This document shows positions 24,407-50,634 of a stretch of DNA of 64,000 bases, one piece after another. Source of the stretch: an uncultured archaeon (GTDB lineage Archaea; Halobacteriota; Methanosarcinia; Methanosarcinales; Methanoperedenaceae); the NCBI GenBank assembly GCA_902384525.1, contig CABMCA010000002.1, forward strand, positions 312-64,311. Reading direction: 5' to 3'. Position numbers and translations under genes: made by a program. How positions within the stretch are numbered: the stretch's first letter is position 1; each line of letters opens with the position of its first letter. The notes under the pieces are model-generated. The model had not been told where the DNA came from. It saw nothing but the letters and a program-made list of their open reading frames with translations, and ran no database searches.

Positions 24407-24513
24407 CATTATATAGAATGAATTTCAAACTAATATAATATATTCAGGGAAAGTGGTGTTGTATTGTATGAATCTGAAATTTAATTTTTTAATTCTGAAT
24501 GGAGTCGTCATAA

Positions 24514-26999: not shown

Positions 27000-27145
27000 A
27001 GATATTTCAGTATTCGCTGGAATAAAAGGAGTTAATATAAACACTCCTTTTATTTTTTAATTTTCTTCGAACTGTTTTATTTAGCTTCTCACCAATTGGC
27101 AATCCTTATATTTACATATCGCATCTTGGGGTTCGGAGAATTTTA

Positions 27146-28809: not shown

Positions 28810-28842
28810 GTTATATATAGTGAATTTAATAAGGGATATGAA

Positions 28843-29949: not shown

Positions 29950-30004
29950 TATAATAAATTATATTATAATAAAATACTATAATAGTAATTATGGAGTAAT
30001 TTAA

Positions 30005-31342: not shown

Positions 31343-31357
31343 AAATCTTTATGATAT

Positions 31358-32347: not shown

Positions 32348-32443
32348 ACCACTTTTTTTCAATTAAAAAATAATAATAAAAAATTAAAAAAATATTAATA
32401 TTAGCGCCTGGATAATAAATATCCAGATCGCTATATCTAAAGA

Positions 32444-32875: not shown

Positions 32876-33045
32876 TATTTTTATTCTCCTATATATATAT
32901 ATAATAATCTATCCCTTTAATAGGAATATTATAATTCTTGACCTAACTTGCAGTTAATCTACTTAAATATATTGATTACACACTTCATCAATTCCTGTAA
33001 TTACAGCCGTGAATCCTGGAAAATTTCAGCGAATATTTATGGACA

Positions 33046-35637: not shown

Positions 35638-35899
35638 AAGTAGTTTCTCCCTAGGAGTTTATTGGTGCGGAAAGGATTAAAATGTTGGCTTGACGTCTTT
35701 TGAATGCTGTTGCTCCTGAAGTTCCTGAGCTATTACCCAGATGGATTCCAGCCTTTGATAAAAAGTGATATTTATGTGGAAGCGGTTTTAGTATGATTTT
35801 TGAACATCTGATAATGTCGATGCATATCAGTCAAAATAGCACAAATAAGTATTCTTTCTGGCGCGCTGATATTGATTCTTATGTTTAATCCGGCAAAGT

Positions 35900-36060
35900 A
35901 ACCGCAGATGAACGCAAATAAACGCAGATATGCATCGTGATTTTCGGGCGCGCCGGAATTTTATTGTTTTGATTTAATAATTAGGGTTATGAACCATTTT
36001 TAAATTAAATTTCAATAAGCATAGCAATTAATCTGCGTTCATCTGTGTTTATCAGCGGTT
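35900..36060. repeat. MITE-like element with 30-bp imperfect terminal inverted repeats made of 10-bp subunits
   Basis: AACCGCAGATGAACGCAAATAAACGCAGAT (35900-35929) versus ATCTGCGTTCATCTGTGTTTATCAGCGGTT (36031-36060); 25/30 match. Confidence 0.7.
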
Positions 36061-36297
36061 TGTTATTCAATTATCCCATGCTCTTCTATCGTTATTCGGT
36101 TTTCCGCATCCTCCAGCCCAAATCATCCCTGCGCTCCTCCCTGTCGCTGACTAAGCGCCCGGATTTGGAGCGAGGCCCCAATTGCCTGAAAATACATCCA
36201 TTTACTCAGGTTACTATTTTATATCTCATCAGCCAAATACAATATTATAATTCAGGAGCCTAATCCCTGCTAAATTTCCTCCAAGCCTTTCGACTAC

Positions 36298-36363
36298 ATA
36301 CCGTAACGGGATATATACATAAATTGCGTAACGCGAAACAGATCAAAAAATTGCGTAACGTAT
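36298..36363. repeat. Triple CGTAACG box array
   Basis: Cores at 36302, 36327 and 36354; two have the AATTGCGTAACG context. Confidence 0.8.
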
Positions 36364-36421
36364 TCTCTTATTTGCGGTTTTTTTCAAAATGTTTATCCGT
36401 TCCCGCTGTAATTTTGCGCCT

Positions 36422-36928
36422 ATGTTATCCCATGACGAATTGATCTCCCTCATCAATGAAAAGCCCCCCCTAGTCGAAAAAATGATCGACCCGGATATCC
36501 AGGTACAGCCCAACGGTGTCGAACTAACCCTTCAGCGCGTAGAATTTCATGACGGTCCGGGTTCTATCGCTTTTGACAACTCGCAAAGGGAACTCCCCCA
36601 GACAAAAAATCTTGATTTCGATAAGGACGGGTGGCTGCATTTACCGCAGGGAAGCTATAAAATTGTATTCAACGAGATCGTGAATATCCCTAAAAACCTC
36701 GCAGCTATCGCAAAACCGCGCTCAAGCTTACTCCGCTGTGGCGTGACCGTGGAAACTGCTGTATGGGATGCGGGTTACAGCGGAAGATCCGAGAGCCTTC
36801 TTGTTGTATATAATGAGAAAGGATTCAGGGTAAAAAAAGATGCTCGTGTTCTGCAGCTTTTGTTTTTCAGGCTTGGGGAAGAAGTCGGAAAAGGATATTC
36901 CGGCGTTTACCAGAATGAGAATGTCTGA
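36422..36928 (+). CDS. dut: Archaeal dUTPase (dCTP deaminase/dUTPase superfamily)
   Basis: QPNGVELTL, PRSSLLRCG, WDAGYSGRS, YSGVYQ. Confidence 0.85.
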   Translation: MLSHDELISLINEKPPLVEKMIDPDIQVQPNGVELTLQRVEFHDGPGSIAFDNSQRELPQTKNLDFDKDGWLHLPQGSYKIVFNEIVNIPKNLAAIAKPRSSLLRCGVTVETAVWDAGYSGRSESLLVVYNEKGFRVKKDARVLQLLFFRLGEEVGKGYSGVYQNENV

Positions 36929-36980
36929 AAAAAAGCTTTAATTTATATTTATGAAAGTCATATGGGCAGTGGCGAAATCT

Positions 36981-37118
36981 ATGAATATACTTGATGTTAC
37001 GGAAGATAAAATCTTCAAAACTTTGGGCAAAGGCAAAGCTCCTGAATCTAAACCAAAACAAAAAACCAGTCTGAAAAAAGAAGTTGAACCTTTCGATTTC
37101 AGCAGTCTTTTAGAATGA
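36981..37118 (+). CDS. Possible 45-aa hypothetical protein
   Basis: MNILDVTEDKIFKTLGKGKAPESKPKQKTSLKKEVEPFDFSSLLE fills the gap; an alternative in-frame ATG at 36951. Confidence 0.35.
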   Translation: MNILDVTEDKIFKTLGKGKAPESKPKQKTSLKKEVEPFDFSSLLE

Positions 37119-37144
37119 ACATTGGGCTATGATCGAGATATGCT

Positions 37145-37729
37145 TCAATGCATTGTCGATCTTTTTGCCATATCTAAATAGTACTTCATTTTACAACTCT
37201 GTTCCACCAGTGCAGTAACAAAATAAGCTTCCTCCAGCGTTTTTCCAGCAGAAAATGTCCCGTGGCCAAAAACAATAACGCCTTTATGGCTACGAAGCGC
37301 CTGCGAGGTTTTATCTGCAAGTCCTGGCGATCCTGTAGCGCCTTTCACTACTGGTATTTCCTGAAGGAAATATTCACCTTCAATGTTTATCGGAACAATG
37401 GTTTCATTTTCAACAAGCATTGACTCAATAACTGCAAATATCGGGTGTGCATGGATGACCGAAAGCGCCGGAGTATTTTTGTATACAGTCCTGTGGACTA
37501 TGGTTTCTGATGAAGCAATGGTATCAAGATTTGAGGGTTTATCAATATCCAATTCCACAACACTGTTCTTGTTTATCTCATCAAGATGAACTCCGGTTCT
37601 GGTGATAAGCATCTTATCGCCATTACGGATACTGATATTTCCGAATTGCGATTCCACAAGCCCGCTGTCGATGAGTTTTTTCCCGAATTTTGTAAACTCC
37701 CTTATTTCCTGGTATTTCGAAAGAGCCAT
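37145..37729 (-). CDS. Class II aldolase/adducin-family protein
   Basis: FGNISIR, SSETIVH, IHAHP, VFGHGTF. Confidence 0.88.
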   Translation of the reverse strand: MALSKYQEIREFTKFGKKLIDSGLVESQFGNISIRNGDKMLITRTGVHLDEINKNSVVELDIDKPSNLDTIASSETIVHRTVYKNTPALSVIHAHPIFAVIESMLVENETIVPINIEGEYFLQEIPVVKGATGSPGLADKTSQALRSHKGVIVFGHGTFSAGKTLEEAYFVTALVEQSCKMKYYLDMAKRSTMH

Positions 37730-37733
37730 GTTC

Positions 37734-38369
37734 TCATCCAAAAGTAAAAGCACTTTTGCATAGTTTATTCAATATGCATTCCCCGCACAGCGGTTTCCTG
37801 GCCGTGCATATTTTTCGCCCATGGTGTATCAGAAGAAGTGTTAAAATAGCCCAATCATTCTCAGGGATGATCTTCATCAGGTCTTTTTCAATTTTTTCCG
37901 GACTCGTGTTTGCAGTAAATCCCAGCCTGAAGGCAATCCTTTGCACATGTGTATCAACAGCTATCCCTTCAATTTTCCCGAACCCACCTGATAATACAAT
38001 ATTTGCAGTCTTTCGTCCCACACCAGGGAGCGTAAGGAGAGCTTCCATGGTATCAGGGACTTTTGAATTAAAATCATTAACAAGAATTTTAGATAATTCC
38101 TTTATATTTTTTGCCTTGTTCCTGTAGAATCCCGTAGAATAAATGTCCTTTTCAAGTTCTTCCTGGGAGGTTTTGATATAATCCTGTGGTGTCCTGTACT
38201 TCTTAAAGAGTATTTTTGTGACCCCATTTACCTGCTTATCCGTGCATTGTGCGGATAGAATTGTAGCGATCAATAATTCCAGGGGGTCTGAATAATGAAG
38301 TGCGATCTTTACTCCAGGATATTCTTTTTTCAATAAGGCGATTATTTCATTAGCCGTATCATCCGCCAT
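37734..38369 (-). CDS. nth: Endonuclease III
   Basis: LSAQCTD, LPGVGRKTAN, IAVDTH, CTARKPLCGECILNKLC Fe-S motif. Confidence 0.95.
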   Translation of the reverse strand: MADDTANEIIALLKKEYPGVKIALHYSDPLELLIATILSAQCTDKQVNGVTKILFKKYRTPQDYIKTSQEELEKDIYSTGFYRNKAKNIKELSKILVNDFNSKVPDTMEALLTLPGVGRKTANIVLSGGFGKIEGIAVDTHVQRIAFRLGFTANTSPEKIEKDLMKIIPENDWAILTLLLIHHGRKICTARKPLCGECILNKLCKSAFTFG

Positions 38370-38474
38370 ATTCTCTAATATTTGCTGCAACATAGTTAAG
38401 AGTTTTGACAGACCGATATGTATAAATGCTAGCATTGCTTAATTATTAATCATAAGGAATGGAGGTAAAATTTT

Positions 38475-38729
38475 ATGGCCAAAGAAAGTGCATCAAAACC
38501 TACCACATCGTCTGCGTCTTCGTGGTGGAGTGAAAGAGGTAAAATAACATCAAGGAAATCCGGAACAGCAGCTGCAAAACCAAAAAAGAAAGTGAGGACA
38601 AAGAAAGCCGCCAAAGCAGAATCAGGGCAAACATATTATTGTGAGATTTGCGGATGTGAAATGGTCTGCGCTTCAGATAGCGCAGGTGAAATTATCTGCT
38701 GCGAAGAACCGATGTGTCTTGTCATCTGA
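38475..38729 (+). CDS. Lys/Ala-rich N-terminus fused to a desulforedoxin-like domain
   Basis: AKPKKKVRTKKAAK followed by YYCEICG...GEIICCEEPM; GGAGG RBS. Confidence 0.7.
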   Translation: MAKESASKPTTSSASSWWSERGKITSRKSGTAAAKPKKKVRTKKAAKAESGQTYYCEICGCEMVCASDSAGEIICCEEPMCLVI

Positions 38730-38754
38730 TTTTACATTTTTTTCTTTTTGATTT

Positions 38755-39855
38755 TCATTTCAAGGATTGACGGGACGGGAACTTCAAACCCGATAATTCC
38801 GCACGCTTGACTCCTTTTTTCTGTATCATGACTTTGAATGTCTCGCCCATATCCATTATCAGCGATTTTATGGGAAGCATTTTCTTATAATAATCCATTG
38901 GACTTTTTTCCTGCAAATCTTTCAGGTATTCGTCGATCCCAAGCCCCATTAGAAAATGCGCCTGGTCTGTGAAACCGCTCAATTCAAGCCCGGATTTTTG
39001 TCCCCAGTGATCCAATGCCGAGAAATTGACATGAGATGTCATATCCTGTTCCCCGATATGCTCAAACGGCGACTCATTCACCGAATGGTTATAATAGCAC
39101 ATGAGAGTGCCGCAGTTCCTGTATTCCTGGTAAAGCTCACTGGATGGATAACCGTAATCTATCGTTATGACAAAACCTTTTTCTAAGGCTGAACTGATCT
39201 CCCGGACCCATTTTATGGCATCAAGGTTTATCTCGGTGCGATATCCAGAAGGCAATGTTATATTCAGTTCTTTGAAATAATCCTTTAGTTGAGTAGAAGC
39301 AGGTTTTAATACCTCAATGAAATTTTTTTCATACCCCACAAAGACCTCCATGAGTTCATTTTCCATTACTACCGCATGCACGGGAAATGCATCCGGAAGT
39401 TCATTGGAATAAATACAACCCTCCATTCCCTTAAGATCGTTTATCGAATCGAGCCAATTTACATTTTCATTACTCAATCGTTTTTTTTGTTCTTTTCGCA
39501 AAGAAGGGCTTTTTTCCACGATGCAGTAATTTAATTTCCGGATAAATTCATGATTTCTTTTTAGATATGATAAGACATCTCCTGAAAGAATACCCATGCC
39601 AGCGCCCATTTCCACAACAGTGAACTCTTTTTCTCCAAGTATATGCCACATATCTTCGATTTGTCTTCCCAGCAGTTCACCAAATGCGGGGGTGAGATTT
39701 GAACTTGTATAATAATCTCCTGCTCGTCCTATTTTCTCTTTATCTGATGTGTAAAACCCAAGCCCGGGGTAATACAATGCCATTTCCATGAAATCATGAA
39801 AAGAAATCAGTCCTTGCTGTCTGATCTTCCGGATTATAAGCCTGGGTAATGTCAT
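38755..39855 (-). CDS. MidA/NDUFAF7-family SAM-dependent methyltransferase
   Basis: FHDFMEMALYYP, GDYYTS, VEMGAGMG, SNELPDAFP, IDYG, QDMTSHVNF. Confidence 0.9.
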   Translation of the reverse strand: MTLPRLIIRKIRQQGLISFHDFMEMALYYPGLGFYTSDKEKIGRAGDYYTSSNLTPAFGELLGRQIEDMWHILGEKEFTVVEMGAGMGILSGDVLSYLKRNHEFIRKLNYCIVEKSPSLRKEQKKRLSNENVNWLDSINDLKGMEGCIYSNELPDAFPVHAVVMENELMEVFVGYEKNFIEVLKPASTQLKDYFKELNITLPSGYRTEINLDAIKWVREISSALEKGFVITIDYGYPSSELYQEYRNCGTLMCYYNHSVNESPFEHIGEQDMTSHVNFSALDHWGQKSGLELSGFTDQAHFLMGLGIDEYLKDLQEKSPMDYYKKMLPIKSLIMDMGETFKVMIQKKGVKRAELSGLKFPSRQSLK

Positions 39856-39885
39856 AGCGATTAAAAGCAATTAAAAATGAATGGC

Positions 39886-40266
39886 TCAGTATTTGTATGA
39901 ATCAACCTCTTCCAATGCTTTTGTCTCTTTTTTCAGAGGCTGGTCTTTGACATCCACATCATGAAAATCTGTTTTCTGTATTTCTTTAACCGTTCCAATA
40001 TTCGCGGCAATTTTTCGAAGTGATTCCATACTTTCTTTCGTCTGCGGCTTAGGCTGTGGTTTTGCTTTTCTTTTTTTCAATTTATAACCCAGCGGCTTTA
40101 ATTCCGATTTTAAAAGTCCAAGCTCGACTTTTCGTTTATTTATCAGGTCAAGGATCGGCTTTTTTGCATTTTCAGGCAATTTCTCAAGCATCCGCTCAAG
40201 ATTTTCAAGTGACTTATCTTTTTCAGGCTTCTTTTCCAATTCTTTATTTGTGGTATCATTATCCAT
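39886..40266 (-). CDS. Hypothetical charged protein
   Basis: 126-aa ORF between purD and the methyltransferase, co-oriented. Confidence 0.6.
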   Translation of the reverse strand: MDNDTTNKELEKKPEKDKSLENLERMLEKLPENAKKPILDLINKRKVELGLLKSELKPLGYKLKKRKAKPQPKPQTKESMESLRKIAANIGTVKEIQKTDFHDVDVKDQPLKKETKALEEVDSYKY

Positions 40267-40284
40267 AATAATATTCTATATGTT

Positions 40285-41586
40285 TTAGTTAGCCCTTAAC
40301 TCTTTCATATGCTGAATTCTTTTCATGATGAGCTCATCTGTTCCGATATCACGCCTGCTGTGCAATTCTCCTTTCAAACATGACAGGCCGTCCTGGGCCT
40401 TCTTTTCTGCATCCCTGATAGTATCAGCAATCCCAAGGACAGCAAGAGCTCTTGAACCAGTCGTATATATTTTATTATCTTTCTCATACACGCTTGAATA
40501 GAAAAGAAGAGAATCTTTCATTTTATCAATTTCCACCACAGAATCCTTCACCGGATTATCAGGATAGCCAGAAGGTACTGCATACTTGCACACCGTTGCC
40601 TGTTTTTTAAATTTGACATTGATCTTATCAAGTGTCTCGTTAACGATATTTGAACAGACCTCAAGGAAATCATTTTCAAGAAGAGGCAGAACATTCATTG
40701 CTTCCGGGTCGCCAAAACGCGCATTGAATTCTATGACCGATATACCATAAGCCGTTGCCATGAACTGGCCATACAGGATGCCCTGGTAAGGAACACCTGT
40801 TTCTTTTTGGATTGCCCTCACTGTATCGTTCATGATTTTTTTGGCATCGATGTAATCGGATTCTTTCATAAAAGGCAAAATATCTTTTGAATCATTGTAT
40901 GAGCCCATCCCGCCTGTATTGGGCCCTTTATCGCCATCGAACGCCCGTTTATGATCCTGGACAGAAGGAGCAAATGCAAGGGTTTTACCATCCACGAATG
41001 CCTGTACCGTAAATTCCTCGCCAATCAACCGCTCTTCGATCACAACATCGTCATTTTTCAGGACTTCTTTTGCATAGTCCTTCGCGCCTTGAATGCCAAA
41101 ATGGTCTCCCATCACCCTGACGCCTTTTCCGCCTGTGAGGCCTGCTGGTTTTATCACGACATCACCCAGATCGTCGATAAATTCATCTGTGCCGCTTTCT
41201 CCCTTCCTGAAAACTTTAAAACCCGGACATCCCGGAATTCCGTATTTTGTCATAAAATCGCGGGTCCATGCCTTATCAAATTCGATCCGGGCTGCCAGGC
41301 GGCGCGGTCCTACGACCGGGATCCCGGCATTCCATAACCTATCCGAAATACCAGCCTCAAGAGGAGCTTCAGGACCGATTATGGCAAGTTCAATATTGTT
41401 TTTTATAGCAAAATCTACAACTGCCGGGTCTGTCTCCTTTATAAGCAGGAAATCTTTACATAAACGTGCTATACCGGGATTTTTCTTGCTCATAACGGCA
41501 AAAAGCTGTGGATTCTTAGAACTTCGGGCAACGGATTCTGCGATGGCGTGTTCCCTTCCTCCGCCTCCGATCAAAAGGACTTTCAT
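40285..41586 (-). CDS. purD: Phosphoribosylamine--glycine ligase
   Basis: [37 protein letters not shown]. Confidence 0.97.
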
Positions 41587-41634
41587 AGGTATCCCCAGAA
41601 CGTGTCTAAAAATAAAAGAAACTTGAATATTGGT

Positions 41635-42201
41635 CTATAACAGACCCAATCCGTCAAGTTCAAGTACTATCTTTTCAACTGCTGCTTCAGCGTCTTCAGG
41701 TTTCTTTCCACCAGTTACTACAAGTTTACCTGATCCGAATAAAAGCATGACAACTTTCGGGACTGACAGCCTGTAAACAAGACCAGGGAACTGTTCAGGT
41801 TCATATTCGATATTCTCAAGTCCAAGGCCAATGGCTATGGCGTTAAGGTTCAGCACTCTTCCGAGATCGGCTGAGGCCACGATATTCTGTATCACTATTT
41901 CCGGTTTTGCTGGTATATCAACACCCATTGTCTTTAATTTATCAAACACCTTGTTAAGACCCACACCCACATCAGCAATACTTTTTGCTCCTGTGCAGAC
42001 GATCTTTCCGCTTCCGAAGATCAAAGCTGCGGTTTTAGGGTTTGCAGTCCTGTAAACAACACCGGGGAATCTCTCCTTATTATAATCCGCTCCTTCAAGG
42101 ACCCTGATAACCTCATTGAGGTCAAGTTTTGCCCCGATAGCTGTCGATGCAACCACATTTTCAATTTTTATAGTTTTCTTTGGTTCCGTAGTATTTACCA
42201 T
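41635..42201 (-). CDS. tbp: TATA-box-binding protein
   Basis: [31 protein letters not shown], two direct repeats. Confidence 0.96.
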
Positions 42202-42329
42202 ATTCTCACGTTTATATAGGGTATTTAAAGCTTTATATAGGTTGGGGTACAATTCACCATATTATATTATAGATGCTCATATAATATTAAAATCTAAGAT
42301 ATCTTTAACTACAATGAACTTCTTAAAGG

Positions 42330-42405
42330 CAAGAAGTGGCGGGAGAAAATCCCGCAGGGATGTGGCCTGATAAGGCTGAACCGTAAAACTACACTGGAGA
42401 AAACA
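42330..42405 (+). ncRNA. Candidate structured leader of rpl15e (eL15-type ribosomal leader)
   Basis: Hairpins GCGGGA-gaaaa-TCCCGC (42339-42355) and GCCT-gata-AGGC (42365-42376) in the 5' UTR. Confidence 0.5.
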
Positions 42406-42993
42406 ATGAAATCAATGTACGCGTACATCAGGGACGCATGGAAAAAACCCGACGAATCGGATGTCGGTGAACTCTTATGGGAAAGGATGCAGGTTTGGAG
42501 ACGCGAACCGGCAGTAACAAGGCTGGACCATCCGACAAGACTTGACAGGGCAAGAGCCCTTGGTTTTAAGGCAAAACAGGGTATTGCAGTCGCACGCGTG
42601 AGAATAAGACGCGGTGGCAGGCGAAAATCAAGATGGCAGCGCGGAAGACGAACCAAGCACATGGGCGTCAATAAGATCACACCTGGAAAGAGCATCCAAA
42701 GTATTGGTGAAGAGCGTGTTGCACGCAGATTCCCAAATATGCAGGTATTGAACAGTTATTGGGTAGGCCAGGACGGCAAACACAAATGGTATGAGGTAAT
42801 AGTCGTTGACCCGAACCATCCTTCGATAAAGGTTGATAAGAACCTTAAATGGATGTGCAGTAATACTCAGAAAGGCCGCGTATTCAGAGGAAAGACAAGC
42901 GCAGGCAGAAAGGGCAGAGGCCAGAGGCACAAGGGCATAGGAACAGAGAAAACAAGACCCAGCCTCAGATCTCACGACAATACTGGTAAATGA
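42406..42993 (+). CDS. rpl15e: 50S ribosomal protein L15e
   Basis: [30 protein letters not shown]. Confidence 0.96.
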
Positions 42994-43409
42994 GTATACA
43001 TTATATCACTTTTCGGGCAAGCGTTCATGCAACCGAAAGTGATGACAGGGTAAAAACTGCCCTGTCACTTTTTCTTTTTGATAATAAAATTAATGAAACA
43101 CAGACCGAAGGTCATTTTGGCAATCCGATCACCTTACTTCAGGGACAGATCAAAGGTAAAGACTGCGCTCGTTTTATCGATATTTTAAAATCAAGTTTGC
43201 CAGAATATGAACTTGAAAAGTTAAGGAATGAACGGTGCGAGAGGATCGATGACGAATGCTGTTTTCATATCAGGTTCGATAAGCAGGCTGCTTTTGAAGG
43301 AAGGGTAAGGCTTGCAACAACTGCTGATACGATCATTGCAAAAATAAAGCTGAAAGCATATCCGGCTAATTATGAAAATGCAGTGGTTGCGGCGGAAGAG
43401 CTTTTCTGA
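42990..43409 (+). CDS. DUF54/COG1325-type predicted RNA-binding protein
   Basis: [26 protein letters not shown]; coupled to rpl15e. Confidence 0.8.
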
Positions 43410-43644
43410 TTTGGCTGCATTCGATCGTGCACACCGCAAAGGGCTCAAAGATCGCAAAGCGAAGCTTGAAAATTTATATTAAATAGTTATGCTGCTAATT
43501 GGATCTAATTTTATTCATCAATAAGAATTGTAACTGTCTCTTTAATACACAAATAGCATACTCTTGTATCAAAAAGAAAAAGAGCAAGAAGCACCGCTCA
43601 AATAGATTATTATAACATTAATGACAAGAATAGTGGGAATAAAA

Positions 43645-45417
43645 ATGGAAAAGGGAATTGTAAAATTTAAAGATTTAATTATTGGGGATAGAATTTTCCA
43701 GATACCCGTTTATCAGCGTAATTTTTCATGGGATAAAAAACAATTGGAAGACTTATGGGACGACCTTCTTTATTTAGATCCCTACAAAAAACATTATTTT
43801 GGAACGATTCTAATGAAAAAGGCTAAAGAAGAGAAGCATGGATTGAAGACTTATGAAATCTACGATATAATAGATGGGCAGCAGAGAATAACTACTGTGC
43901 TAATACTTCTGAGAGAAATTATATCACACTTAAATAGCCTTGGCGATGAAACTGATGAAACCAAGGAAGAGCTAACCAAATTAGAAGAAGAATATTTAAA
44001 ATACAAAACCATCTATAAATTAGAATTGCTTGGGGATGACAACGTTTTTTTTCGCAGCTATGTTATAGATGATACGGAATATCCTGATGCAACATTAACA
44101 TCCTCGCAGAGAAGATTAAAAGAGGCTAAATTTTTATTTAGAAAGAAACTGGAGAAAATTGAGAAATCGGAAGCAAAGAAATTTGGAGATTTCCTCGGTC
44201 AATTTATAGACAAGATAGGCAATTTGGAAATAATAATATATCCAGTTGAAAATGATGCCGATGCAGCACGGATTTTTGAAACTGTCAATGATAGAGGCAA
44301 GCAGTTAACCAATTTGGAAAAGACAAAAAGTTTCTTGATGCAAATGGTATATTTAACTGTACCTAAAGAATCTGGAGATTCGACATCCTATTTAAGACAG
44401 ATAAATGATGGTTTTTCCAGAATATTCAGAGATTTTGAGGAAATAAGAACTACAGTAAGAGGAAAGGACTTAAACGAAGATGATATACAAAGATATCATT
44501 TTATCGTTTATGTATCGAGCGATATCAAGACTTCTTACAGATATTTGGACTTTTTGAAGGAAAAAATTAGAGGCTTTTACAGAGAAAATAAAGAGAAATG
44601 TTTAAACTTTGTTCTGGAATATACGAAAGATTTAGAAAAAGCATTCTTTGCATTAAAAGAAATAATAATTTACAAAAAAGATGACGAAATAGGAATTTTA
44701 TTCGATAAAATATATATTTTAGGAAGAGTAGCAAATTTTTATCCTCTCCTAATCGCTTCTTGGATTCGATTTAAAGACGAGCAAGAAAAAATAGAGAAGC
44801 TTTTAATGATAATAGAAATTTTTTCGTTCAGAGTATACAGCATAGGCAGGAAAAGGTCGGATGCGGGGATAAATTCAATCTACTCATTAGCATATGAAGT
44901 TCGAAGCAATAAGACGATGCATATTGAATTAATAAAAAAACTTATGAATATTATACATGAGTATCAAGGCAATAAAGAATTTAATATAAACCTAACCACC
45001 GAAGATTTTTATAATAGGGTTGATACCGCTGATAAAAAATATTTACTTTTTGAGTACGAGAAGTTTTTGAGGGAAGAGGCAAAAGAACCATTAGACATAC
45101 ATCTGAAAAACATTCTATCTGAAAAATTTGAAATAGAGCATATATGGGCTACAGACACATCAAAACTAAAATTAAGCGATGAATTAGAGGATATTCATGA
45201 ACAGTATAAAGATAAGCTAGGAAATCTAACACTTGCCTCTGACTCGTGGAATTCTAAATGGCGCAACAGTCCTTTTGTTGACAAAAAGGAAGACTACAAA
45301 GATTCTAATTTAAGAGTTCAGAGAGAACTTGCCAGTTCATCAGAGTGGGATGAAAAACAGATACAAGCAAGAGAGAAACGAATCATAGAGTTTATCTTCA
45401 AAAGATGGGAAGTTTAG
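43645..45417 (+). CDS. GmrSD-family (DUF262 + DUF1524/HNH) type IV restriction endonuclease
   Basis: IPVYQRNFSW, IIDGQQRITT, IFETVNDRG; C-terminal EIEHIWA...LGNLTL; AT-rich. Confidence 0.88.
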   Translation: MEKGIVKFKDLIIGDRIFQIPVYQRNFSWDKKQLEDLWDDLLYLDPYKKHYFGTILMKKAKEEKHGLKTYEIYDIIDGQQRITTVLILLREIISHLNSLGDETDETKEELTKLEEEYLKYKTIYKLELLGDDNVFFRSYVIDDTEYPDATLTSSQRRLKEAKFLFRKKLEKIEKSEAKKFGDFLGQFIDKIGNLEIIIYPVENDADAARIFETVNDRGKQLTNLEKTKSFLMQMVYLTVPKESGDSTSYLRQINDGFSRIFRDFEEIRTTVRGKDLNEDDIQRYHFIVYVSSDIKTSYRYLDFLKEKIRGFYRENKEKCLNFVLEYTKDLEKAFFALKEIIIYKKDDEIGILFDKIYILGRVANFYPLLIASWIRFKDEQEKIEKLLMIIEIFSFRVYSIGRKRSDAGINSIYSLAYEVRSNKTMHIELIKKLMNIIHEYQGNKEFNINLTTEDFYNRVDTADKKYLLFEYEKFLREEAKEPLDIHLKNILSEKFEIEHIWATDTSKLKLSDELEDIHEQYKDKLGNLTLASDSWNSKWRNSPFVDKKEDYKDSNLRVQRELASSSEWDEKQIQAREKRIIEFIFKRWEV

Positions 45418-45582
45418 CATCCACTGGCATCAAAGAATCAGCATTATACCATTATTATAATATTACTTCACTAGATATTTAGATAAATTGCCTCGTTAAT
45501 TTTTGATTTTTAAAGTTCATTTTCTTCATTCAATATATACTCTCTGAGCAAGGCATTATTTTCCCATTATTTTCGTAGTAGT

Positions 45583-45945
45583 TTAAAGGGTGGTTTGTTT
45601 AGACTTGATGCGTTCCGTTTCAGATTTTGTCTTCATTGATTGTATATTCTTCCTAATAATAGAAGTTCCATTTTTGAATGATAACGTCAATTCATCCAAT
45701 TTCTGTTCTATCTCATTGAGCCGTTCGTTTTCATCTTTTTTCTTCAGTAAAAACCATTCTTCAATTATAGCCTCAACCAAAGCACCCATATTAGTGTTCT
45801 GTTCGATTGCGGTTTTCTTCAAACGTTTTACCAAATTTGGTTTTGGAGAAACCATAATAATGTTTAGACTGTTTTTGTTACCTTTTTTCTTTTTAAATTG
45901 TTCTATTGGAATTGTAGATTCCTTTTTCACTAAATCACCATTCAT
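45583..45945 (-). CDS. Ribbon-helix-helix-like protein with coiled-coil tail
   Basis: IIMVSPKPNLVKRLKKTAIEQNTNMGALVEAIIEEW. Confidence 0.6.
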   Translation of the reverse strand: MNGDLVKKESTIPIEQFKKKKGNKNSLNIIMVSPKPNLVKRLKKTAIEQNTNMGALVEAIIEEWFLLKKKDENERLNEIEQKLDELTLSFKNGTSIIRKNIQSMKTKSETERIKSKQTTL

Positions 45946-45951
45946 ATGCTA

Positions 45952-46758
45952 TCACCCCAATAGTCCCTTTTTATCTAAGTGACCAACGACAAGAGTGTTA
46001 ACAAATACTTCTGGCTCCTCTCCTCTCTTAGAACATTCCTCCGTTATTGCTTGTGAAACCTTTGGAGAAAAGGTTAGGACAATACTTAGACCTTCGTTTT
46101 CAGTTTCACTAGGACCCGTAAGCAATTCATCTATATCATCAACTGTAGCTTCTGGATTTGCCTTGATAAACGCTAATACATCCTTTCTTATCGCAGGTAT
46201 CATCGTCGATAATTTCTCTGCAATATTAACCATTTCATCTTCAGATACCCTACTCCAAAGTAAATCGGTTGCCGCACCTTTTGGGAGCTTCTTTTCAGAA
46301 ACCATATCCTTGATTTTTTCTGGAATTGCATCGTACCCTGCCCAATTTCTGATAGTTATTAGATTCTTATGTAATTTCTTAGCAACAGCATCCCAAGTTC
46401 CATAAATACTCTTTAGATGTATTACTGCATTAGCTTTGTCCTGTGGGTCAATATCTTGGCGCTCTATATTTTCAATTAAGGAACGAATAACATCTTCGCC
46501 CTCATTCTCCTCTGTGATAAACGCTGGAATAGTTGGCCACCCAAGCTTCTTTGCAGCAATTGTTCTTCTCTGACCTGCAATAATTTGGTAGCGTTCTCCA
46601 ATCTTTCTGGCTTCAACAGGGTGTAATAGACCAATTTCTCGTAGGCTTTCCATTAAGCTATCTATTTCATCTTCAATATTCAGTTTTCTCACGTTAGAAT
46701 CGCTAATTATTACTTTACTCAGATCAATATCCTCAAGTTTTCTCATCTTGTTTACCAT
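45952..46758 (-). CDS. ParB/Srx-family protein (no adjacent ParA)
   Basis: SNVRK, GLLHPV, IIAGQRRTIAA, ENIER, central HTH. Confidence 0.85.
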   Translation of the reverse strand: MVNKMRKLEDIDLSKVIISDSNVRKLNIEDEIDSLMESLREIGLLHPVEARKIGERYQIIAGQRRTIAAKKLGWPTIPAFITEENEGEDVIRSLIENIERQDIDPQDKANAVIHLKSIYGTWDAVAKKLHKNLITIRNWAGYDAIPEKIKDMVSEKKLPKGAATDLLWSRVSEDEMVNIAEKLSTMIPAIRKDVLAFIKANPEATVDDIDELLTGPSETENEGLSIVLTFSPKVSQAITEECSKRGEEPEVFVNTLVVGHLDKKGLLG

Positions 46759-46823
46759 GAAAACAATACCTCCTTGTTTCTATACTTTCATTATTTAAAT
46801 ATTTTGTGGATAAAAAATATTTT

Positions 46824-47868
46824 TGTAGAGTCCTGAAATTATTTCGTCAGGATTTTTCTGCGAATTACAAGTCATCAGAGCCCATGGTGAAGATGACTAA
46901 CCGGAAGATCAAGTTAGGAATCGATTGGGTAATCAAAAAGGGTGAAACCGTTGATGAGGTAGCCAATACATTTGATGTCTCTTCAAGACGAATAGAGCAA
47001 TTAGTGAAAATCTTCAAAGAAACCGGGAAATATCCGATTTTGAATCCAAAAAGACGACCTAAAGTGCACCTTACAGAAGAACAGAAAAAAATAATAAAAC
47101 AAGCATACAGCGAATCATTTTTTGGTGCAAGAATGCTCAGGCACCATATACTAAAAAGATATAAACAAAACATTCCTCAAAATAAAATTCATGAATATCT
47201 TTTGGAAATCGGAATAGCGAAACCTGACCCTAAAAAACAGAAAAAAAGAAACCGATGCAGGTATGAGCGGAAGCATAGATTATCGTTGCTTCATGCGGAT
47301 TATATGGAAAATGAAGGAATTCATGTGATCGCCTTTGAAGATGATGCTTCCAGGAAGATCCTTTCAATTGGAGAATTCAATAATGCAACGACTGATAATG
47401 CTTTAGAGATATTGAAAGTTGCGGAACAAGAAGCTTTGGAGGCCAACGGGTTGATTCAGGCTATCAATATGGATAGAGGTTCACAATTTTATCCAAATAA
47501 AAAAGACAAGAATGGTGAAGCGGATTCTGTTTTTCGAGATTATCTTGAATCAAAAGGAATTAAACATATACCATCACGAAGAAACAATCCACAAACCAAT
47601 GGCAAGATTGAAAGGTGGTTTCAAGAATATCTCAAGCATAGAAATAAATTTAATTCAGCAAATGAATTCAAGGATTGGTATAATGATAGAATTCATGGTT
47701 CTTTGAAACTTGAATGGGGTGAAACTCCAAATGAAGCTTTTGTTCGAAAAATGCAGCCTGAAACAATCTTAGGACAATTTTTTAAGACTTTTGGATGGTG
47801 AAACAAAATATGAATGTGGAATCAAGGAATAACAAAAAAAATCAGCGAAAAAATATCCGGACTCTACA
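46824..47868 (+). mobile_element. IS481-family insertion sequence with a 15-bp target-site duplication
   Basis: TGTAGAGTCC...GGACTCTACA imperfect terminal IRs (5'-TGT...ACA-3'); GATAAAAAATATTTT at 46809-46823 and 47869-47883. Confidence 0.92.
46884..47801 (+). CDS. IS481-family DDE transposase
   Basis: N-terminal HTH, LHAD, MDRGSQF, PQTNGKIERW. Confidence 0.92.
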   Translation: MVKMTNRKIKLGIDWVIKKGETVDEVANTFDVSSRRIEQLVKIFKETGKYPILNPKRRPKVHLTEEQKKIIKQAYSESFFGARMLRHHILKRYKQNIPQNKIHEYLLEIGIAKPDPKKQKKRNRCRYERKHRLSLLHADYMENEGIHVIAFEDDASRKILSIGEFNNATTDNALEILKVAEQEALEANGLIQAINMDRGSQFYPNKKDKNGEADSVFRDYLESKGIKHIPSRRNNPQTNGKIERWFQEYLKHRNKFNSANEFKDWYNDRIHGSLKLEWGETPNEAFVRKMQPETILGQFFKTFGW

Positions 47869-48089
47869 GATAAAAAATATTTTTATCATTTCCCAAAAAA
47901 ATTTTCTACGTCTAAATATGAATAGCCTATACATCACGATTATTGAGTAAGAAACTTTATCCCATCCAAACCACCGATACAAATCGAAACCTTACCTAAT
48001 CTCCCATAATTCAAAAATGACCATTATGGAACAAAACCTTTATCATTTACCGATACAATTACGGGATGCCCCCATCAATGAATCAATGT

Positions 48090-48162
48090 GCCTGGGTGGG
48101 GTAGCTGGTTATCCTATGGGACTGTGGATCCTACGACCCGGGTTCGAATCCCGGCCCGGGCC
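48090..48162 (+). tRNA. tRNA-His (GTG)
   Basis: Acceptor GCCTGGG/CCCGGGC, anticodon loop CTGTGGA, T-arm CCGGG-TTCGAAT-CCCGG, discriminator C; CCA not encoded. Confidence 0.95.
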
Positions 48163-48265
48163 TCATTGTTTTTATTTAGAGCCCTGCATACTTTTTTTCA
48201 TTATCTGGTGTAGTTAAATAAATATTGTTCTCAATATCCTCTGAGAAGAGTAAAATCAGGACATA

Positions 48266-48343
48266 GAACACGGATTGGGCGGATTACGCGGATACGCGCG
48301 GATTATCCGTGTAAATCTGCATAATCAGCGTCATCCGCGTTCT
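48266..48343. repeat. Short palindromic element of about 9-bp CGGAT/ATCCG subunits
   Basis: AGAACACGGAT...GGAT repeats facing ATCCGTG...ATCCGCGTTCT. Confidence 0.6.
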
Positions 48344-48382
48344 GAGACTGATTGGAGATTTTATAGAAAATTAAGGCCTACA

Positions 48383-48455
48383 AATCCCGTTACGCAATTT
48401 ATCCTGTAAATTCCCGTTACGCAATTCCCTCATTTACTTTCCGTTACGGGAATTA
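48383..48455. repeat. Triple CGTTACG box array, exact 27-bp period
   Basis: Cores at 48388, 48415 and 48442; two read CCCGTTACGCAATT. Confidence 0.85.
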
Positions 48456-48637
48456 GATACAATATTTTTATTTAAACCTCTTATTTTAATTTATAGGGCA
48501 CGTTCTATAATCAGGCAAAGGTCATCTATCTCAGACAGCAATTACCAATCAGATATTTTTTTGCTTAAAAATATATTATGCGTTTTTGATGCAAAAATAC
48601 GGAAAAAGGGCAAAATTCAGCTAAAACTGCGTATAAT

Positions 48638-49525
48638 GTGGATTATACGCAGTTTTTATATACCCGAAATGCTAAAAATAGGGATATTATGCAAGATGAA
48701 CTTCCATTATCATTGAAGAAACTTGAAACCGAGTTAAAGCTTAGAGGATTTTCCAAGCAGACCTCGAAGATGTATCTCTTCTACAATCATAAGTTCCTTG
48801 AATTCATTAAAAAGAATCCGGAAGATATAAAGGACGATGATATCAAGGAGTTCCTGGCATCAAAAATGTCAGATGATTCGTTATCAAATTCCTCGATCGC
48901 CCTCATAAAAGCAGCCATTAAATTTTTCTATTCTGATATGCTCGGGAAAAACATGTCTTTGATAAAGACGCCAAAAGCAACAAAAGAACTGCCAGTGGTA
49001 CTGAGCCGCGATGAAATAAGAAAACTTATTGACAATACAAAAAACATAAAGCACAAGCTTTTAATTGAACTCCTTTACTCCACAGGCTTAAGGCTTTCGG
49101 AATGCAGCAACTTGCAATACTCAAACCTTGACCTGAATGACGGTATCGGCTGGGTGCGCCTGGGAAAAGGATCAAAGGACAGGATATTCATTATTTCAGA
49201 ATTGTTCAGGAAAGACCTTCTGACCTATATGGAAAAAACGGGCACCAATGGTAAAGGATACATTTTTTCTGTAAATGGCAGGAAAATGTCTCCGCGCGGT
49301 CTTCAGCACGCTATAAAAGTATCTGCTGTGCGCGCCGGCATCGAGAAACCCGTGCATGTGCACACGCTCCGGCATTCTTTTGCCACACATCTTCTTGAGA
49401 ACGGCGTGGATATAAGGAAGATACAAAAGCTGCTTGGGCACTCGAATTTACAGACTACGCAGATATATACTCAGGTTTCAAGTGATGAGATTAAGAAAAT
49501 CAAAAGCCCTCTGGATATGCTTTGA
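48638..49525 (+). CDS. XerA/XerD-like tyrosine recombinase with N-terminal SAM-like domain
   Basis: STGLRLSE, GKGSKDR, HTLRHSFATHLL, LLGHSNLQTTQIY (all catalytic residues present); the ATG at MQDEL may be the true start. Confidence 0.92.
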   Translation: MDYTQFLYTRNAKNRDIMQDELPLSLKKLETELKLRGFSKQTSKMYLFYNHKFLEFIKKNPEDIKDDDIKEFLASKMSDDSLSNSSIALIKAAIKFFYSDMLGKNMSLIKTPKATKELPVVLSRDEIRKLIDNTKNIKHKLLIELLYSTGLRLSECSNLQYSNLDLNDGIGWVRLGKGSKDRIFIISELFRKDLLTYMEKTGTNGKGYIFSVNGRKMSPRGLQHAIKVSAVRAGIEKPVHVHTLRHSFATHLLENGVDIRKIQKLLGHSNLQTTQIYTQVSSDEIKKIKSPLDML

Positions 49526-49562
49526 GGTTATAAATAAATATACAATAATATATAATTTATTA

Positions 49563-49850
49563 CTATTTTATTTCGCTATGATGTTGTTCATACATCAGTC
49601 TTTCTTTTTCTTTCTTGAGTTCCATTTCCTTGCGAGCAATTGCTTTCATAGCTTCAGTAGGTTTATATTTCAAATTGATCCTGTGTTTTTGCTCCCTGGT
49701 ATATACAACATAACCATATAACAGGAATGCGAATGCTGCGATTGGGATCAGAAATACCCATCCGACAGTAAAACCTATAAACGCTAACCCTATCAATGAG
49801 GCAACTCCAAGTCCTAACTTCCTATTCTTAAATATTTCATTCGTATTCAT
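49563..49850 (-). CDS. Small membrane protein with charged coiled-coil tail
   Basis: Hydrophobic residues 12-50, then EMELKKEKERL; AAGGGGG RBS-like. Confidence 0.55.
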   Translation of the reverse strand: MNTNEIFKNRKLGLGVASLIGLAFIGFTVGWVFLIPIAAFAFLLYGYVVYTREQKHRINLKYKPTEAMKAIARKEMELKKEKERLMYEQHHSEIK

Positions 49851-49904
49851 ATCGAAGACCCCCTTTTATCACATTTCATATTTCTACTCGGAGGTAATAA
49901 TTGT

Positions 49905-50276
49905 TTCGTATGAGAACGAACTAACTATGTAATTTAATTTACATTTAATTGCGTAACGCGATTTTTTGGATTTATTCGCGTAACGGATTTAAAAAAATAT
50001 CCTTGAAAGAATCAGTTAGATAATATTTCCCATTTCAAATATGATAAGTAAGTGGGCAGAAAGGGGGATTATGGTGGTATATAAAAAATTTCTCTGCCCA
50101 CTACAATTCGTATATATACGAACAATAGTATTTATAGATTACGGTTGTTGTAAACATGAGTATTTATTCTGAATAGGAGGTAGTGGGCTTTTGGGATTTA
50201 TGGTGTGTAGATTGAAAAAAAATTTTTCTCGGCCCACTACAATTCGTACATATGCGAACTAAAGTATTTATAGTTT
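49905..50276. promoter_or_regulatory. Three TTCG-N8-CGAA boxes, two within a 136-bp-period duplicated promoter-like unit; plus a CGTAACG pair
   Basis: Boxes at 49905-49920, 50107-50122 (perfect TTCGTATATATACGAA) and 50243-50258; TATTTATA 6 nt after the last two; CGTAACG at 49952 and 49979. Confidence 0.75.
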
Positions 50277-50385
50277 ACTGTCATAATAATGATGAGCATT
50301 AATATATACACTGAATATCTGACCGGAACAAGCTAACATACCGTGACGGCATCTATATATATTCCCGTAACGCAATCAGTATAAT

Positions 50386-50634
50386 ATGACTGAACGTAAA
50401 TATACCCGCTGGAAAAAATGCCTGATATGCGACGATTTTGTGAAACTCATGTTCCCAGAGGATGCAAGGGATATACTCATAATTTACGAACCCGTAGAAG
50501 GAATGAGCGATGAATCCGGCAACTGGAAGAAAAAACAAATGGGATATATACACCGATCCTGTCTTTTAAAAGCTGCATCATTGAAGCCAAAAAATAATGA
50601 AGAAAGAAACATCAGTATTTCAGAGGGCGTATAG
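50386..50634 (+). CDS. Small putative zinc-binding protein (CxxC...HxxC)
   Basis: CLIC and HRSC motifs; stop overlaps the ubiD start. Confidence 0.5.
   Translation: MTERKYTRWKKCLICDDFVKLMFPEDARDILIIYEPVEGMSDESGNWKKKQMGYIHRSCLLKAASLKPKNNEERNISISEGV

Follow-up and report, generated by a model that had tools for sequence, protein, structure and literature searches.

Phased palindromic boxes flanking dif-xerA in Methanoperedenaceae: putative operators of a lineage-specific DNA-binding protein

RESULTS AND DISCUSSION

A palindromic box recurs in phased arrays around xerA

In a 64-kb window of chromosomal DNA of Candidatus Methanoperedens (the window being the whole stretch of 64,000 nt that we analysed) a short palindromic box recurs in four intergenic clusters, and across Methanoperedenaceae arrays of this box bracket the gene of the tyrosine recombinase XerA and its dif site, an arrangement for which nothing comparable has been described previously. 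Our preferred explanation, which we hold with about as much confidence as doubt, is that the boxes are operators or upstream sites of a lineage-specific DNA-binding protein that would control xerA, dut and neighbouring genes.

The box (consensus wwTyCCGTWACGGrAww; TTGCGTAACGCAA is a frequent form in the present strain) is a palindrome of 13 bp centred on a single base. Ten boxes were found at the cores listed in an earlier note on this DNA (36302/36327/36354, 48388/48415/48442, 49952/49979 and 50342/50366), the core at 50342 reading CGTGACG, and every array of the window lies between genes. The exact heptamer CGTWACG occurs 11 times in the 64-kb window (1.78 expected), a number reached in none of 100 shuffles of the window; the two of these copies that are not among the ten boxes (7286 and 34116) are isolated and lie inside coding sequence. 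A 17-nt weight matrix trained exclusively on boxes from other species picked the same ten sites (12.9–23.7 bits) plus one weak coding singleton, at a threshold of 8 bits for which shuffled windows yield 0–8 matches.

Three boxes make up the dut-proximal array (36296–36366; centred at 36305, 36330 and 36357, spaced 25 and 27 bp; 19.7, 19.0 and 13.8 bits), three the array upstream of dif-xerA (48383–48453; centred at 48391, 48418 and 48445, spaced exactly 27 bp; central T; 20.6–23.7 bits) and two the array downstream of xerA (49947–49990; centred at 49955 and 49982, spaced 27 bp; central A). The layout described earlier was borne out: the 48.4- and 49.95-kb arrays mirror each other around xerA, the 36.3-kb array, when reverse-complemented, shows the architecture of the 48.4-kb array (CGTTACGCAATT-15-CGTTACGCAATT-13 or 15-CGTTACGG), and the ACATACCGTRACGG context, followed by a TATA run, is common to 36.3 and 50.34 kb. 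The 36.3- and 48.4-kb arrays are the longest inverted repeats within 35.6–50.7 kb.

The boxes and their phase are conserved

In 31 Methanoperedenaceae genomes all three-box arrays map to the locus of xerA and flank the gene on either side, and the link between box and recombinase gene that the note had drawn is real and strongly conserved. Such confinement to dif-xerA counts against operators, as a classical regulon would be expected to be dispersed. Array size ranges from 2 to 13 boxes, with 3–13 in each orthologue of the array upstream of dif-xerA; arrays of 7–13 sites far exceed what an operator needs. The 27-bp spacing is exact in 177 of 223 cases, and within 340 kb of DNA from Methanoperedens the heptamer CGTWACG occurs 308 times, 293 of them inside arrays. 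The 276 boxes compared, taken from more than 30 species, carry information at 11 central positions, and their spacers are near random. Boxes and phase are kept among species whose XerA proteins are 78–96% identical, with a spacer identity of merely 25–60%. Judged from this sequence pattern, selection acts on the boxes and their phase, not on the spacers.

The same pattern bears on the idea that the boxes are non-functional repeats, i.e. a chance cluster, a recent tandem duplication or the remnants of mobile elements. MITE-like repeats, an IS481 element and a repeated hairpin element do lie nearby. However, the clustering is far beyond chance, conserved boxes with divergent spacers are the opposite of what a recent tandem duplication leaves behind, and no arrays were found in viral contigs. 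The conservation pattern refutes this idea, to which we assign next to no likelihood.

The unit array-block-dif-xerA-array is constant, whereas the flanking genes vary among species; xerA is the sole invariant neighbour of the arrays. In many species the downstream array begins 5–13 bp past the xerA stop, and many arrays placed just past this stop show no fixed relation to a downstream promoter, which is not what is expected of operators. The central base is T upstream of xerA in 22 of 25 loci and A downstream in 20 of 22, and on both flanks the G-type half-box points toward dif. Box polarity tracks position relative to dif-xerA and not the direction of the adjacent gene, again a point against operators.

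XerA has its own canonical dif site

The recombinase is a housekeeping XerA (48689–49525, + strand; 278 aa; Pfam Phage_integrase and SAM_4) that scores over the cutoff of NCBIfam recomb_XerA_Arch (equivalog NF040815, 263.6 bits versus a cutoff of 220), and its role is archaeal chromosome-dimer resolution. We moved its start from the previously given 48638 to 48689, most likely the correct position, since a length of 278 aa matches nearly all homologues listed. Directly 5' of the gene lies a canonical dif site that the earlier note lacked (ACTGCGTATAA-TGTGGA-TTATACGCAGT, 48626–48653; perfect 11-bp inverted arms, 6-bp spacer), which occurs once in the window (0 expected by chance), is immediately followed by TTTTATATACC (48654–48664) and stops 35 bp short of the xerA start codon. 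Archaeal dif sites feature TAA-N6-8-TTA (PMC11840125). Between species the arms vary symmetrically (ACTGCG, ACTGTA, AGTACG, ATGTCG).

This site bears directly on the proposal that the boxes are accessory (arm-type) or crossover sites of XerA, delimiting invertible segments of ~12 kb and ~1.6 kb or forming the ends of an Xer-type mobile unit. The arrays being the region's longest inverted repeats with xerA as sole invariant neighbour, the resemblance of the half-box ATTGCGTA of this strain to the outer dif arm ACTGCGTA and a dut-xerA gene order that varies among species all speak for it. However, a housekeeping XerA with a proper dif of 11-6-11 geometry beside its gene is hard to reconcile with segment or unit ends, and the boxes are without the geometry of a core site (two 11-bp arms, 6–8-bp spacer): their 1-bp centre leaves no room for strand exchange. 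As the dif arms change and the boxes stay CGTWACG, XerA does not read the boxes like dif. The differences in gene order among species do not amount to a simple flip between the arrays, because the genes downstream of dut also differ; the 12 kb between the arrays hold the housekeeping genes purD, TBP and eL15 and a strain-specific island. No strand-switching or inversion joints were present in the contigs of eight runs, a contig-level result with which rare switching is compatible. Xer accessory sequences (cer and psi with PepA, ArgR or ArcA) and the arm-type sites of lambda-family integrases likewise place additional protein-binding DNA, putative in the present case, next to the core site of a tyrosine recombinase. 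Unlike these, the present arrays lie on both sides, at distances from dif of ~180 bp and of ~900 bp or more, the boxes do not change together with the dif arms and also occur at promoters far from dif, and XerA, in contrast to lambda-family integrases, lacks an additional arm-binding domain (two Pfam domains in 278 aa). The proposal is thus largely refuted and, in our estimation, very improbable.

Boxes are found at promoters, also away from xerA

Downstream of the 48.4-kb array, by 16 nt, lies an invariant AT-rich block (ATTTTTATTYAAACCTCTTATTTTAATTTATRG...TTC, 48464–48505, + strand), which the earlier note also lacked. It is present as a single copy per locus, has 31 invariant columns across 18 species and follows the last upstream box at a constant 15–16 nt in these species. 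With its TATA-like elements and a conserved TTC ~25 nt downstream, the block looks like a promoter.

The dut gene (36389–36928, + strand; archaeal dUTPase/dCTP-deaminase fold; Pfam DCD/dUTPase; NCBIfam NF002598, 207 bits versus a cutoff of 130) begins 32 bp past the final box of its array, and an ATATATA run (36311–36317) sits between boxes 1 and 2. In many other species dut adjoins xerA and is divergent from it, with box arrays in between; here it is 12 kb from xerA, yet the three-box array is kept. The distance from array to dut promoter varies by species, which counts against operators.

As at dut in this strain, a TATA box is flanked by two boxes in the promoter module of F4 (50336–50377; box centre 50345, TATATATA at 50354–50361, box centre 50369; box spacing 24 bp), with the F4 ATG 14 bp past the second core. 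F4 (50386–50634, + strand) encodes a basic orphan protein of 82 aa with CxxC...HxxC, and its stop overlaps the start of a UbiD-family (menaquinone biosynthesis) decarboxylase gene (50634–52076, + strand; Pfam UbiD; NCBIfam TIGR03701, 654 bits) that is co-transcribed with F4. The box-TATA-box module is visible at 8 of the 9 F4 loci examined, and we also found the F4 module in L017, L080, L011, L040, L107 and L238, the last with no xerA within 10 kb. In BLZ1-type genomes F4-UbiD follows xseAB, xerA is not within 10 kb, and the module is retained. Since F4 in these genomes and dut in the window keep their modules away from xerA, the boxes travel with promoters.

Speculatively, F4 could itself be a candidate box-binding or autoregulated factor. 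It is restricted to Methanoperedens (59 clusters; every organism name given is Methanoperedens, 'Euryarchaeota archaeon' or 'uncultured archaeon'), no relatives were found among 1.84 billion representatives, and this distribution, as narrow as that of the arrays, was counted in favour of operators; the low-confidence predicted model (pLDDT 63), with no fold match, was counted against them.

Between xerA and the downstream array lies F16 (49563–49850, − strand; small membrane protein, 95 aa), with the array ~100 bp upstream of it; in strains that lack F16 the array directly abuts the xerA stop (joint 49525->49946). On L102, F16 reached a depth of 1135 compared to ~6 for xerA in one metatranscriptome (unstranded contigs, carrying no start-site position), and such very high transcription beside an array was counted as support for operators.

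Possible architectural and replication functions

The main rival explanation puts a protein coat, or a roadblock, on the flanks of dif: a box-binding protein would cover both flanks of dif-xerA through the convergent arrays, with a chromosomal main job and secondary effects on promoters. Possible jobs are the stalling or unloading of SMC at dif, the pairing of the two dif copies of a dimer, or a polar terminus barrier. We regard this as possible but rather doubtful. It would account for the three-box arrays lying exclusively at dif-xerA on both sides (31 genomes), for up to 13 boxes per array, for the orientation mirrored about dif-xerA with the G-type half-box toward dif, and for the constancy of the unit despite differing flanking genes. 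There are also precedents: in Thermococcus kodakarensis an SMC-dependent boundary is made by the sequence surrounding dif via a TrmBL2 filament, not by dif/XerA, in other euryarchaea boundaries adjoin dif, and in bacteria XerD at XDS and MatP at matS exclude SMC complexes from the dif region (PMC11840125). As in these systems, array-like protein roadblocks would lie beside a dimer-resolution site, and as at the T. kodakarensis boundary (PMC11840125) the non-dif DNA on both sides of an archaeal dif would recruit a DNA-coating protein. However, TrmBL2 binds AT-rich DNA with little sequence specificity (PMC11840125), in contrast to the present box, which is a sharply defined palindrome repeated in a strict phase of 27 bp; dif adjoins xerA here but not in Thermococcales, and some boxes are clearly on promoters, unlike at the TrmBL2 boundary. 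Further points against a chiefly chromosomal role are the box modules retained at promoters now distant from dif (that of F4 in BLZ1-type genomes, that of dut 12 kb off in the window), the TATA boxes between boxes, the dut array in the window, which points away from dif, and a GC skew that within the window merely tracks gene strand.

We also considered the arrays as replication-origin iterons, ORB-like elements or a centromere-like partition site, which we judge improbable. Phased, oriented repeats surround an AT-rich invariant block, and in several species polB and dut are neighbours. Many phased short repeats are likewise found in plasmid iterons and in the centromere repeats parC and sopC, where they nucleate a higher-order nucleoprotein complex; here, by contrast, the repeats are chromosomal and bracket dif-xerA, and no linked partition or Rep gene was seen. 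ORB consensus sequences differ from the box motif. Against an origin or partition site, neither the DNA within 10 kb of xerA in three relatives, nor the family-checked genes at 33–58 kb of the window (14 ORFs fell outside this check), nor the inspected ORF families adjoining arrays showed an Orc1/Cdc6, ParA or SegA gene. The sole ParB-like gene (45952–46758) belongs to the strain-specific island, and related strains have arrays without the island. Formally, a palindrome of 13 bp built on one central base resembles the SegB sites near segAB, whose high-affinity members also cluster at one locus (PMC12284271). However, the SegB motif TCTAGA-S-TCTAGA is unlike the box, SegB sites also occur genome-wide, mostly intragenic and without strict phasing (PMC12284271), and segAB genes were not seen here. 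Finally, a dif site is part of the locus, and in archaea with a single origin dif is located away from oriC (PMC2958812).

Proposed operators of one binding protein

Operators thus remain our preferred reading of the boxes. Of the three options raised in the earlier note, an unknown regulon including dut and xerA fits best, given boxes that flank TATA and travel with moved genes. One sequence-specific protein, probably a dimer and apparently confined to Methanoperedenaceae, would bind all boxes; with sites 27 bp apart, neighbouring dimers could therefore bind cooperatively and fill arrays of 2–13 sites. Archaeal multi-operator factors are known: the control region of Ss-LrpB itself holds three such boxes of 15 bp, and others are the Lrp/FL11-type assemblies and Ptr2 with its upstream activating sites. 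Like their sites, the boxes are palindromes (13–17 bp) at regular centre-to-centre spacing with a proposed cooperative filling, and overlap or lie just upstream of BRE/TATA, with autoregulation a speculative further likeness. Unlike them, up to 13 sites occur, nearly all at one chromosomal locus, and the period is 27 bp (~2.6 helical turns) instead of 2, 3 or 4 whole turns.

At dut and F4 the boxes sandwich TATA, so that occupancy should exclude TBP/TFB and hence repress. At xerA the array ends ~60 bp before the inferred start site, where archaeal activators are usually placed, and xerA would be controlled through the rigidly spaced promoter-like block. Further targets may be dut, F16 and the F4-UbiD operon, to which other species would add polB, DUF3147 and a MarR gene. 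In Methanoperedenaceae, the arrays would in this way control a small group of transcription units, most of them clustered around dif-xerA.

Box arrays in the window and in other genomes

The earlier note had placed ten cores of a CGTWACG-centred palindrome (hereafter box) in four clusters, at 36.3, 48.4, 49.95 and 50.34 kb of the window, and we located every one of them exactly where it had been reported. Nine exact CGTWACG copies and one CGTGACG make up these clusters, all of which are intergenic, with spacings of 25/27, 27/27, 27 and 24 bp, respectively. The whole window holds 11 exact CGTWACG heptamers (1.78 expected), a count that 0 shuffles reached. The 36.3-kb and 48.4-kb arrays do share their architecture in opposite orientation, as had been claimed; no inverted repeats in the region are longer than those made by these two and the 49.95-kb array. 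Each box is a 13–17-bp palindrome with a single central base (consensus wwTyCCGTWACGGrAww). When a 17-nt weight matrix trained only on boxes from other species was run over the full 64 kb, it returned the ten sites and one weak coding singleton.

The same boxes are found in the same relative places at the orthologous xerA loci of three other species. When the three-box pattern CGTWACG-N20-CGTWACG-N20-CGTWACG was run over 185,579 species, each represented by a single genome, it yielded 104 blocks, including 32 from 31 Methanoperedenaceae assemblies. All of these 32 blocks belong to the xerA locus: 26 contain xerA itself, and the remaining 6 either include the dif site, the conserved block described below or both, or are the adjoining 8-kb block on the same contig. 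Three-box arrays are confined to the xerA locus in these 31 genomes. Blocks from outside the Methanoperedenaceae are mostly near-perfect GC-rich tandem repeats of a different nature; the two haloarchaeal matches are perfect tandem repeats of another kind, and the matches on viral contigs are coding 27-nt tandem repeats only. In a two-box scan of metagenomes, gut-bacterial genes dominate among the matches listed, and the few Methanoperedens-like ones with recognisable genes lie beside xerA, dut, polB with its neighbouring ORF family F30, or an HSP20-CDC48 operon. Two-box modules more than 10 kb from xerA were found at F4 (an orphan gene heading a UbiD operon) in locus L238 and at dut in the window.

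Among 90 arrays of 2–9 boxes (up to 13 on metagenome contigs), the 27-bp spacing is exact in 177 of 223 cases, and 293 of the 308 CGTWACG heptamers in 340 kb fall inside arrays. The spacers are unconserved, both inside arrays and across species, and selection therefore targets the box and its phase, which, judged from the sequences, is the signature of cooperative protein binding and not of recent duplication. A simple tandem repeat or a Borg-like recent duplication would show near-identical head-to-tail units; spacer identity is 25–60% in the Methanoperedens arrays, and most unrelated matches, from bacteria and viruses, reach at least 80%. That the arrays are non-functional repeats is extremely unlikely. 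Taken together, they are real, conserved, phased and putatively protein-binding, are linked to the dif-xerA locus and are specific to the Methanoperedenaceae.

The dif site and the region upstream of xerA

By aligning the regions upstream of xerA (48689-49525 (+)) we found two further elements, a dif site and a conserved block. The dif site (48626-48653; ACTGCGTATAA-TGTGGA-TTATACGCAGT), overlooked in the earlier note, is a perfect 11-6-11 inverted repeat, of which the window has a single copy where chance predicts 0; TTTTATATACC follows it directly, and its end lies 35 bp ahead of the xerA ATG. Archaeal dif sites have a TAA-N6-TTA core (PMC11840125), which 48626-48653 carries, and we predict it to be dif from its sequence and its linkage to Xer. 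The arms vary across species (ACTGCG, ACTGTA, AGTACG, ATGTCG), both always changing symmetrically, as expected if one recombinase alone reads the site. The 11-6-11 layout, the core, uniqueness, co-evolving arms and a linked Xer gene are thus all present in the sequence at 48626-48653, which also resembles E. coli dif. The recombinase scored 263.6 bits against the XerA equivalog model of NCBIfam (NF040815; cutoff 220) and contains the Pfam domains PF00589 (Phage_integrase) and PF13495 (SAM-like N-terminal), identifying it as a XerA; its nearest homologues, up to 96% identical, all come from Candidatus Methanoperedens (ANME-2d). Exact-protein look-ups gave no record for the XerA and dut sequences of the window.

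The conserved block (48464-48505) is an AT-rich, invariant stretch of ~40 nt, which occurs once per locus, 15–16 nt past the last upstream box. It contains TATA-like elements, with a conserved TTC ~25 nt downstream, and we infer from these elements a putative promoter directed at dif and xerA. The constant unit opens with an array and the block; a variable stretch follows, ~120–150 nt long at most loci and longer at those with inserted DNA, and then come dif, TATA, xerA and another array. Both flanks vary by species: one holds rpS8e, DUF3147/dut, CDC48, polB or an eL15 block, and the other F16 (encoding a membrane protein), MarR, a GTPase or F4-UbiD. The dif site is located immediately upstream of the xerA TATA box, and XerA bound to dif would probably also repress the xerA promoter. 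The literature searched contained neither a description of this arrangement nor a paper that connects Methanoperedens with xerA or dif, and a full-text search for the box motif returned chance primer matches only.

In several lineages, small HNH-nuclease genes sit between dif (or the block) and xerA (family F8 in loci L012, L016, L040, L058 and L076; family F34 in L001 and L041); they may be selfish elements exploiting the neighbourhood of dif. In L008, L080 and L084 the xerA locus adjoins rpS8e, ThrRS, a CdrS-like RHH gene and ftsZ, and dimer resolution is there placed beside a cell-division regulator cluster.

Recombination sites and replication origins

From the inverted arrays around xerA, the earlier note had proposed, as one of several readings, that the boxes are accessory or arm sites of the recombinase and define invertible segments. 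A Xer core site requires two arms of ~11 bp and a central exchange region of 6–8 bp; the boxes are inverted repeats that lack this layout and show no co-variation with the dif arms. XerA was rejected as an unlikely box reader because the dif arms differ across species whereas the boxes stay CGTWACG; XerA also has no arm-binding domain. The 12 kb between the arrays contain housekeeping genes and a strain-specific island, and the synteny differences seen across species are no simple flip, which speaks against invertible segments. An inversion switch would show both orientations in a population or between close strains, with junctions at the inverted repeats. Contigs of eight runs (assembled contigs, from strains ~90–96% identical) contained no inversion or strand-changing joints, although rare switching could escape such contigs. 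We consider XerA accessory sites or invertible segments very unlikely. A joint 35929->48263, tried as a deletion form, was rejected as a multi-copy MITE-like repeat with other genomic copies; such repeats occupy 35880-36060 (inverted arms 35899-35922 and 36028-36051) and 48263-48343.

The island is a stretch of ~33% GC (43621-46758), which has zero depth in the contigs of related strains; it encodes a restriction endonuclease of the GmrSD type (43621-45417) as well as a ParB/Noc-like protein (45952-46758) and looks like a strain-specific defence island. The ParB-like gene was rejected as the source of a box binder, since it lies inside this island, which is missing from relatives. A transposase gene of the IS481 family (46806-47801), with terminal inverted repeats of 23 nt (46824-46846 and 47846-47868), lies just upstream of tRNA-His (48090-48162). 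The window, an archaeal chromosome, also contains an archaeal SRP RNA and an eL15 leader. Short direct repeats just past tRNA-His (48164-48188) resemble the start of the conserved block (48460-48481) and the island edge (43769-43786), and may be traces of past insertions beside the array.

Repeated palindromes could also mark a replication origin or a centromere, a reading that we regard as quite unlikely. An ORB-type origin would combine a neighbouring orc1/cdc6 gene with ORB repeats around a DNA-unwinding element, a constellation not seen among the genes checked near xerA. Orc1/Cdc6 is neither listed for the genes called up to 10 kb from xerA in three relatives nor found among the family-checked genes of the window between 33 and 58 kb (14 ORFs there are without a family check), and the box motif is not known to resemble ORB sequences.

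Boxes at promoters and candidate binding proteins

An operator array is expected to be intergenic and palindromic, to be conserved at orthologous promoters and to overlap or flank BRE/TATA elements, and the boxes at F4 and dut match this pattern. In the promoter of F4 (82 aa; 50386-50634 (+)), the TATA box (50354-50361 in the window) lies between two boxes 24 bp apart, and the ATG follows 14–37 bp on. This box-TATA-box module was seen in 8 of the 9 F4 promoters examined, the exception (L004) having three boxes with 27-bp spacing, and it is retained in BLZ1-type genomes, in which F4-UbiD follows xseAB and any xerA is more than 10 kb away. Many species have dut divergent from xerA with the arrays between them; the dut gene of the window (36389-36928 (+)) has retained its three boxes though it lies 12 kb from xerA, in a ACATACCGTRACGG-TATA-box layout as at F4 (TATA run at 36311-36317). 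Boxes travel with relocated promoters, and a cis-regulatory function is therefore favoured. Operators or upstream sites of a lineage-specific factor controlling xerA, dut, F16 and F4-UbiD are the most likely reading of the arrays, one that we hold with evenly balanced confidence. F16 (95 aa; 49563-49850 (-)) is missing in some strains, where the xerA stop codon abuts the array. It lies next to an array and is very highly expressed in one bioreactor metatranscriptome, where its RNA contig depth (gene at L102 5114-5404; unstranded contigs) was 1135 versus ~6 for xerA (~200-fold); the RNA contigs are too sparse for placing start sites.

Two tandem copies of another, conserved element (50040-50160 and 50180-50300; 85-nt core 80% identical) consist, in this order, of a hairpin GTGGGCAGA...TCTGCCCAC, a 16-bp palindrome TTCGTATATATACGAA (50107-50122; 50243-50258) and TATTTATAG. 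The hairpin element is found downstream of xerA in most Methanoperedens loci, with raised DNA and RNA contig depth, and a related TTCGT-N6-ACGAA palindrome lies upstream of F16 (~49893-49912). The element could serve as another operator or as the promoter of a small RNA. Rfam gave no match at the arrays, at the conserved block or at this element. The dut array is preceded by a chaperone cluster (thermosome, DnaK, ClpB; 22763-35637); in other species the xerA array borders directly on an HSP20-CDC48 operon, and on metagenome contig L200 a two-box site precedes this operon.

Which protein might read the boxes? The F4 protein is a candidate: it is basic, contains a CxxC...HxxC motif and is an orphan restricted to Methanoperedens (59 clusters), with no relatives among 1.84 billion representatives, and its promoter is always embedded in boxes. 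Its structure model is of low confidence (pLDDT 63) and gave no match to a known fold. MarR, HTH_5/TrmB-like, CdrS-like RHH and small HNH genes were rejected, as they lie near arrays in some species only and are absent from the window; the text and supplements of the CdrS paper do not state a CdrS motif.

Arrays on both sides of dif

The main rival to the operator reading, possible but on balance unlikely, is that protein coats dif from both sides in convergent orientation or forms a roadblock there; both readings could hold at once. An SMC boundary of this type would consist of non-dif DNA beside dif to which a coating protein binds and which insulates chromosomal contacts. Its support comes from the confinement of three-box arrays to the xerA locus, from their size (up to 13 boxes), from their location on both sides of dif and from the many arrays that begin 5–13 bp past the xerA stop codon. 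Moreover, the boxes are slightly asymmetric, and their orientation is mirrored about dif-xerA: of 25 loci, 22 have T as the central base on the upstream side, and of 22 loci, 20 have A on the downstream side (91:44 versus 31:92 when pooled, Fisher p = 9e-12, the loci not being phylogenetically independent). This bias survives despite randomised spacers and is therefore probably selected. Box polarity tracks the position relative to dif, not the direction of the adjacent gene; GC skew in the window follows gene strand only. The nearest precedent is Thermococcus kodakarensis, in which the sequence surrounding dif, and not dif/XerA, makes an SMC-dependent boundary via a TrmBL2 filament; other euryarchaea also have dif-adjacent boundaries (PMC11840125).

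As a speculative and rather doubtful extension, convergent sequence-specific arrays that bind protein would mark the dimer-resolution site of Methanoperedens and so be the archaeal equivalent of CTCF-like, XDS or matS devices. On either flank of dif, SMC complexes or replication forks would be stalled or unloaded by a dedicated protein, and this state would be coupled to the expression of xerA and dut; the lineage-specific orphan F4 could read the arrays.

The locus bears on how Xer recombination is controlled in space and time in archaea. XerA is active on dif in vitro without accessory factors, and archaea are not known to have FtsK. The locus offers a sharply defined, synthesisable motif arrayed around dif in an environmentally important methane-oxidising archaeon, and supplies the predicted dif site and the putative layout of the xerA promoter for Methanoperedens. 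The motif could be used as bait to fish for the binder and to probe recombination, chromosome folding and transcription. If arrays of this kind do mark the dimer-resolution site, they would give archaea their first boundary or terminus element with a defined sequence.
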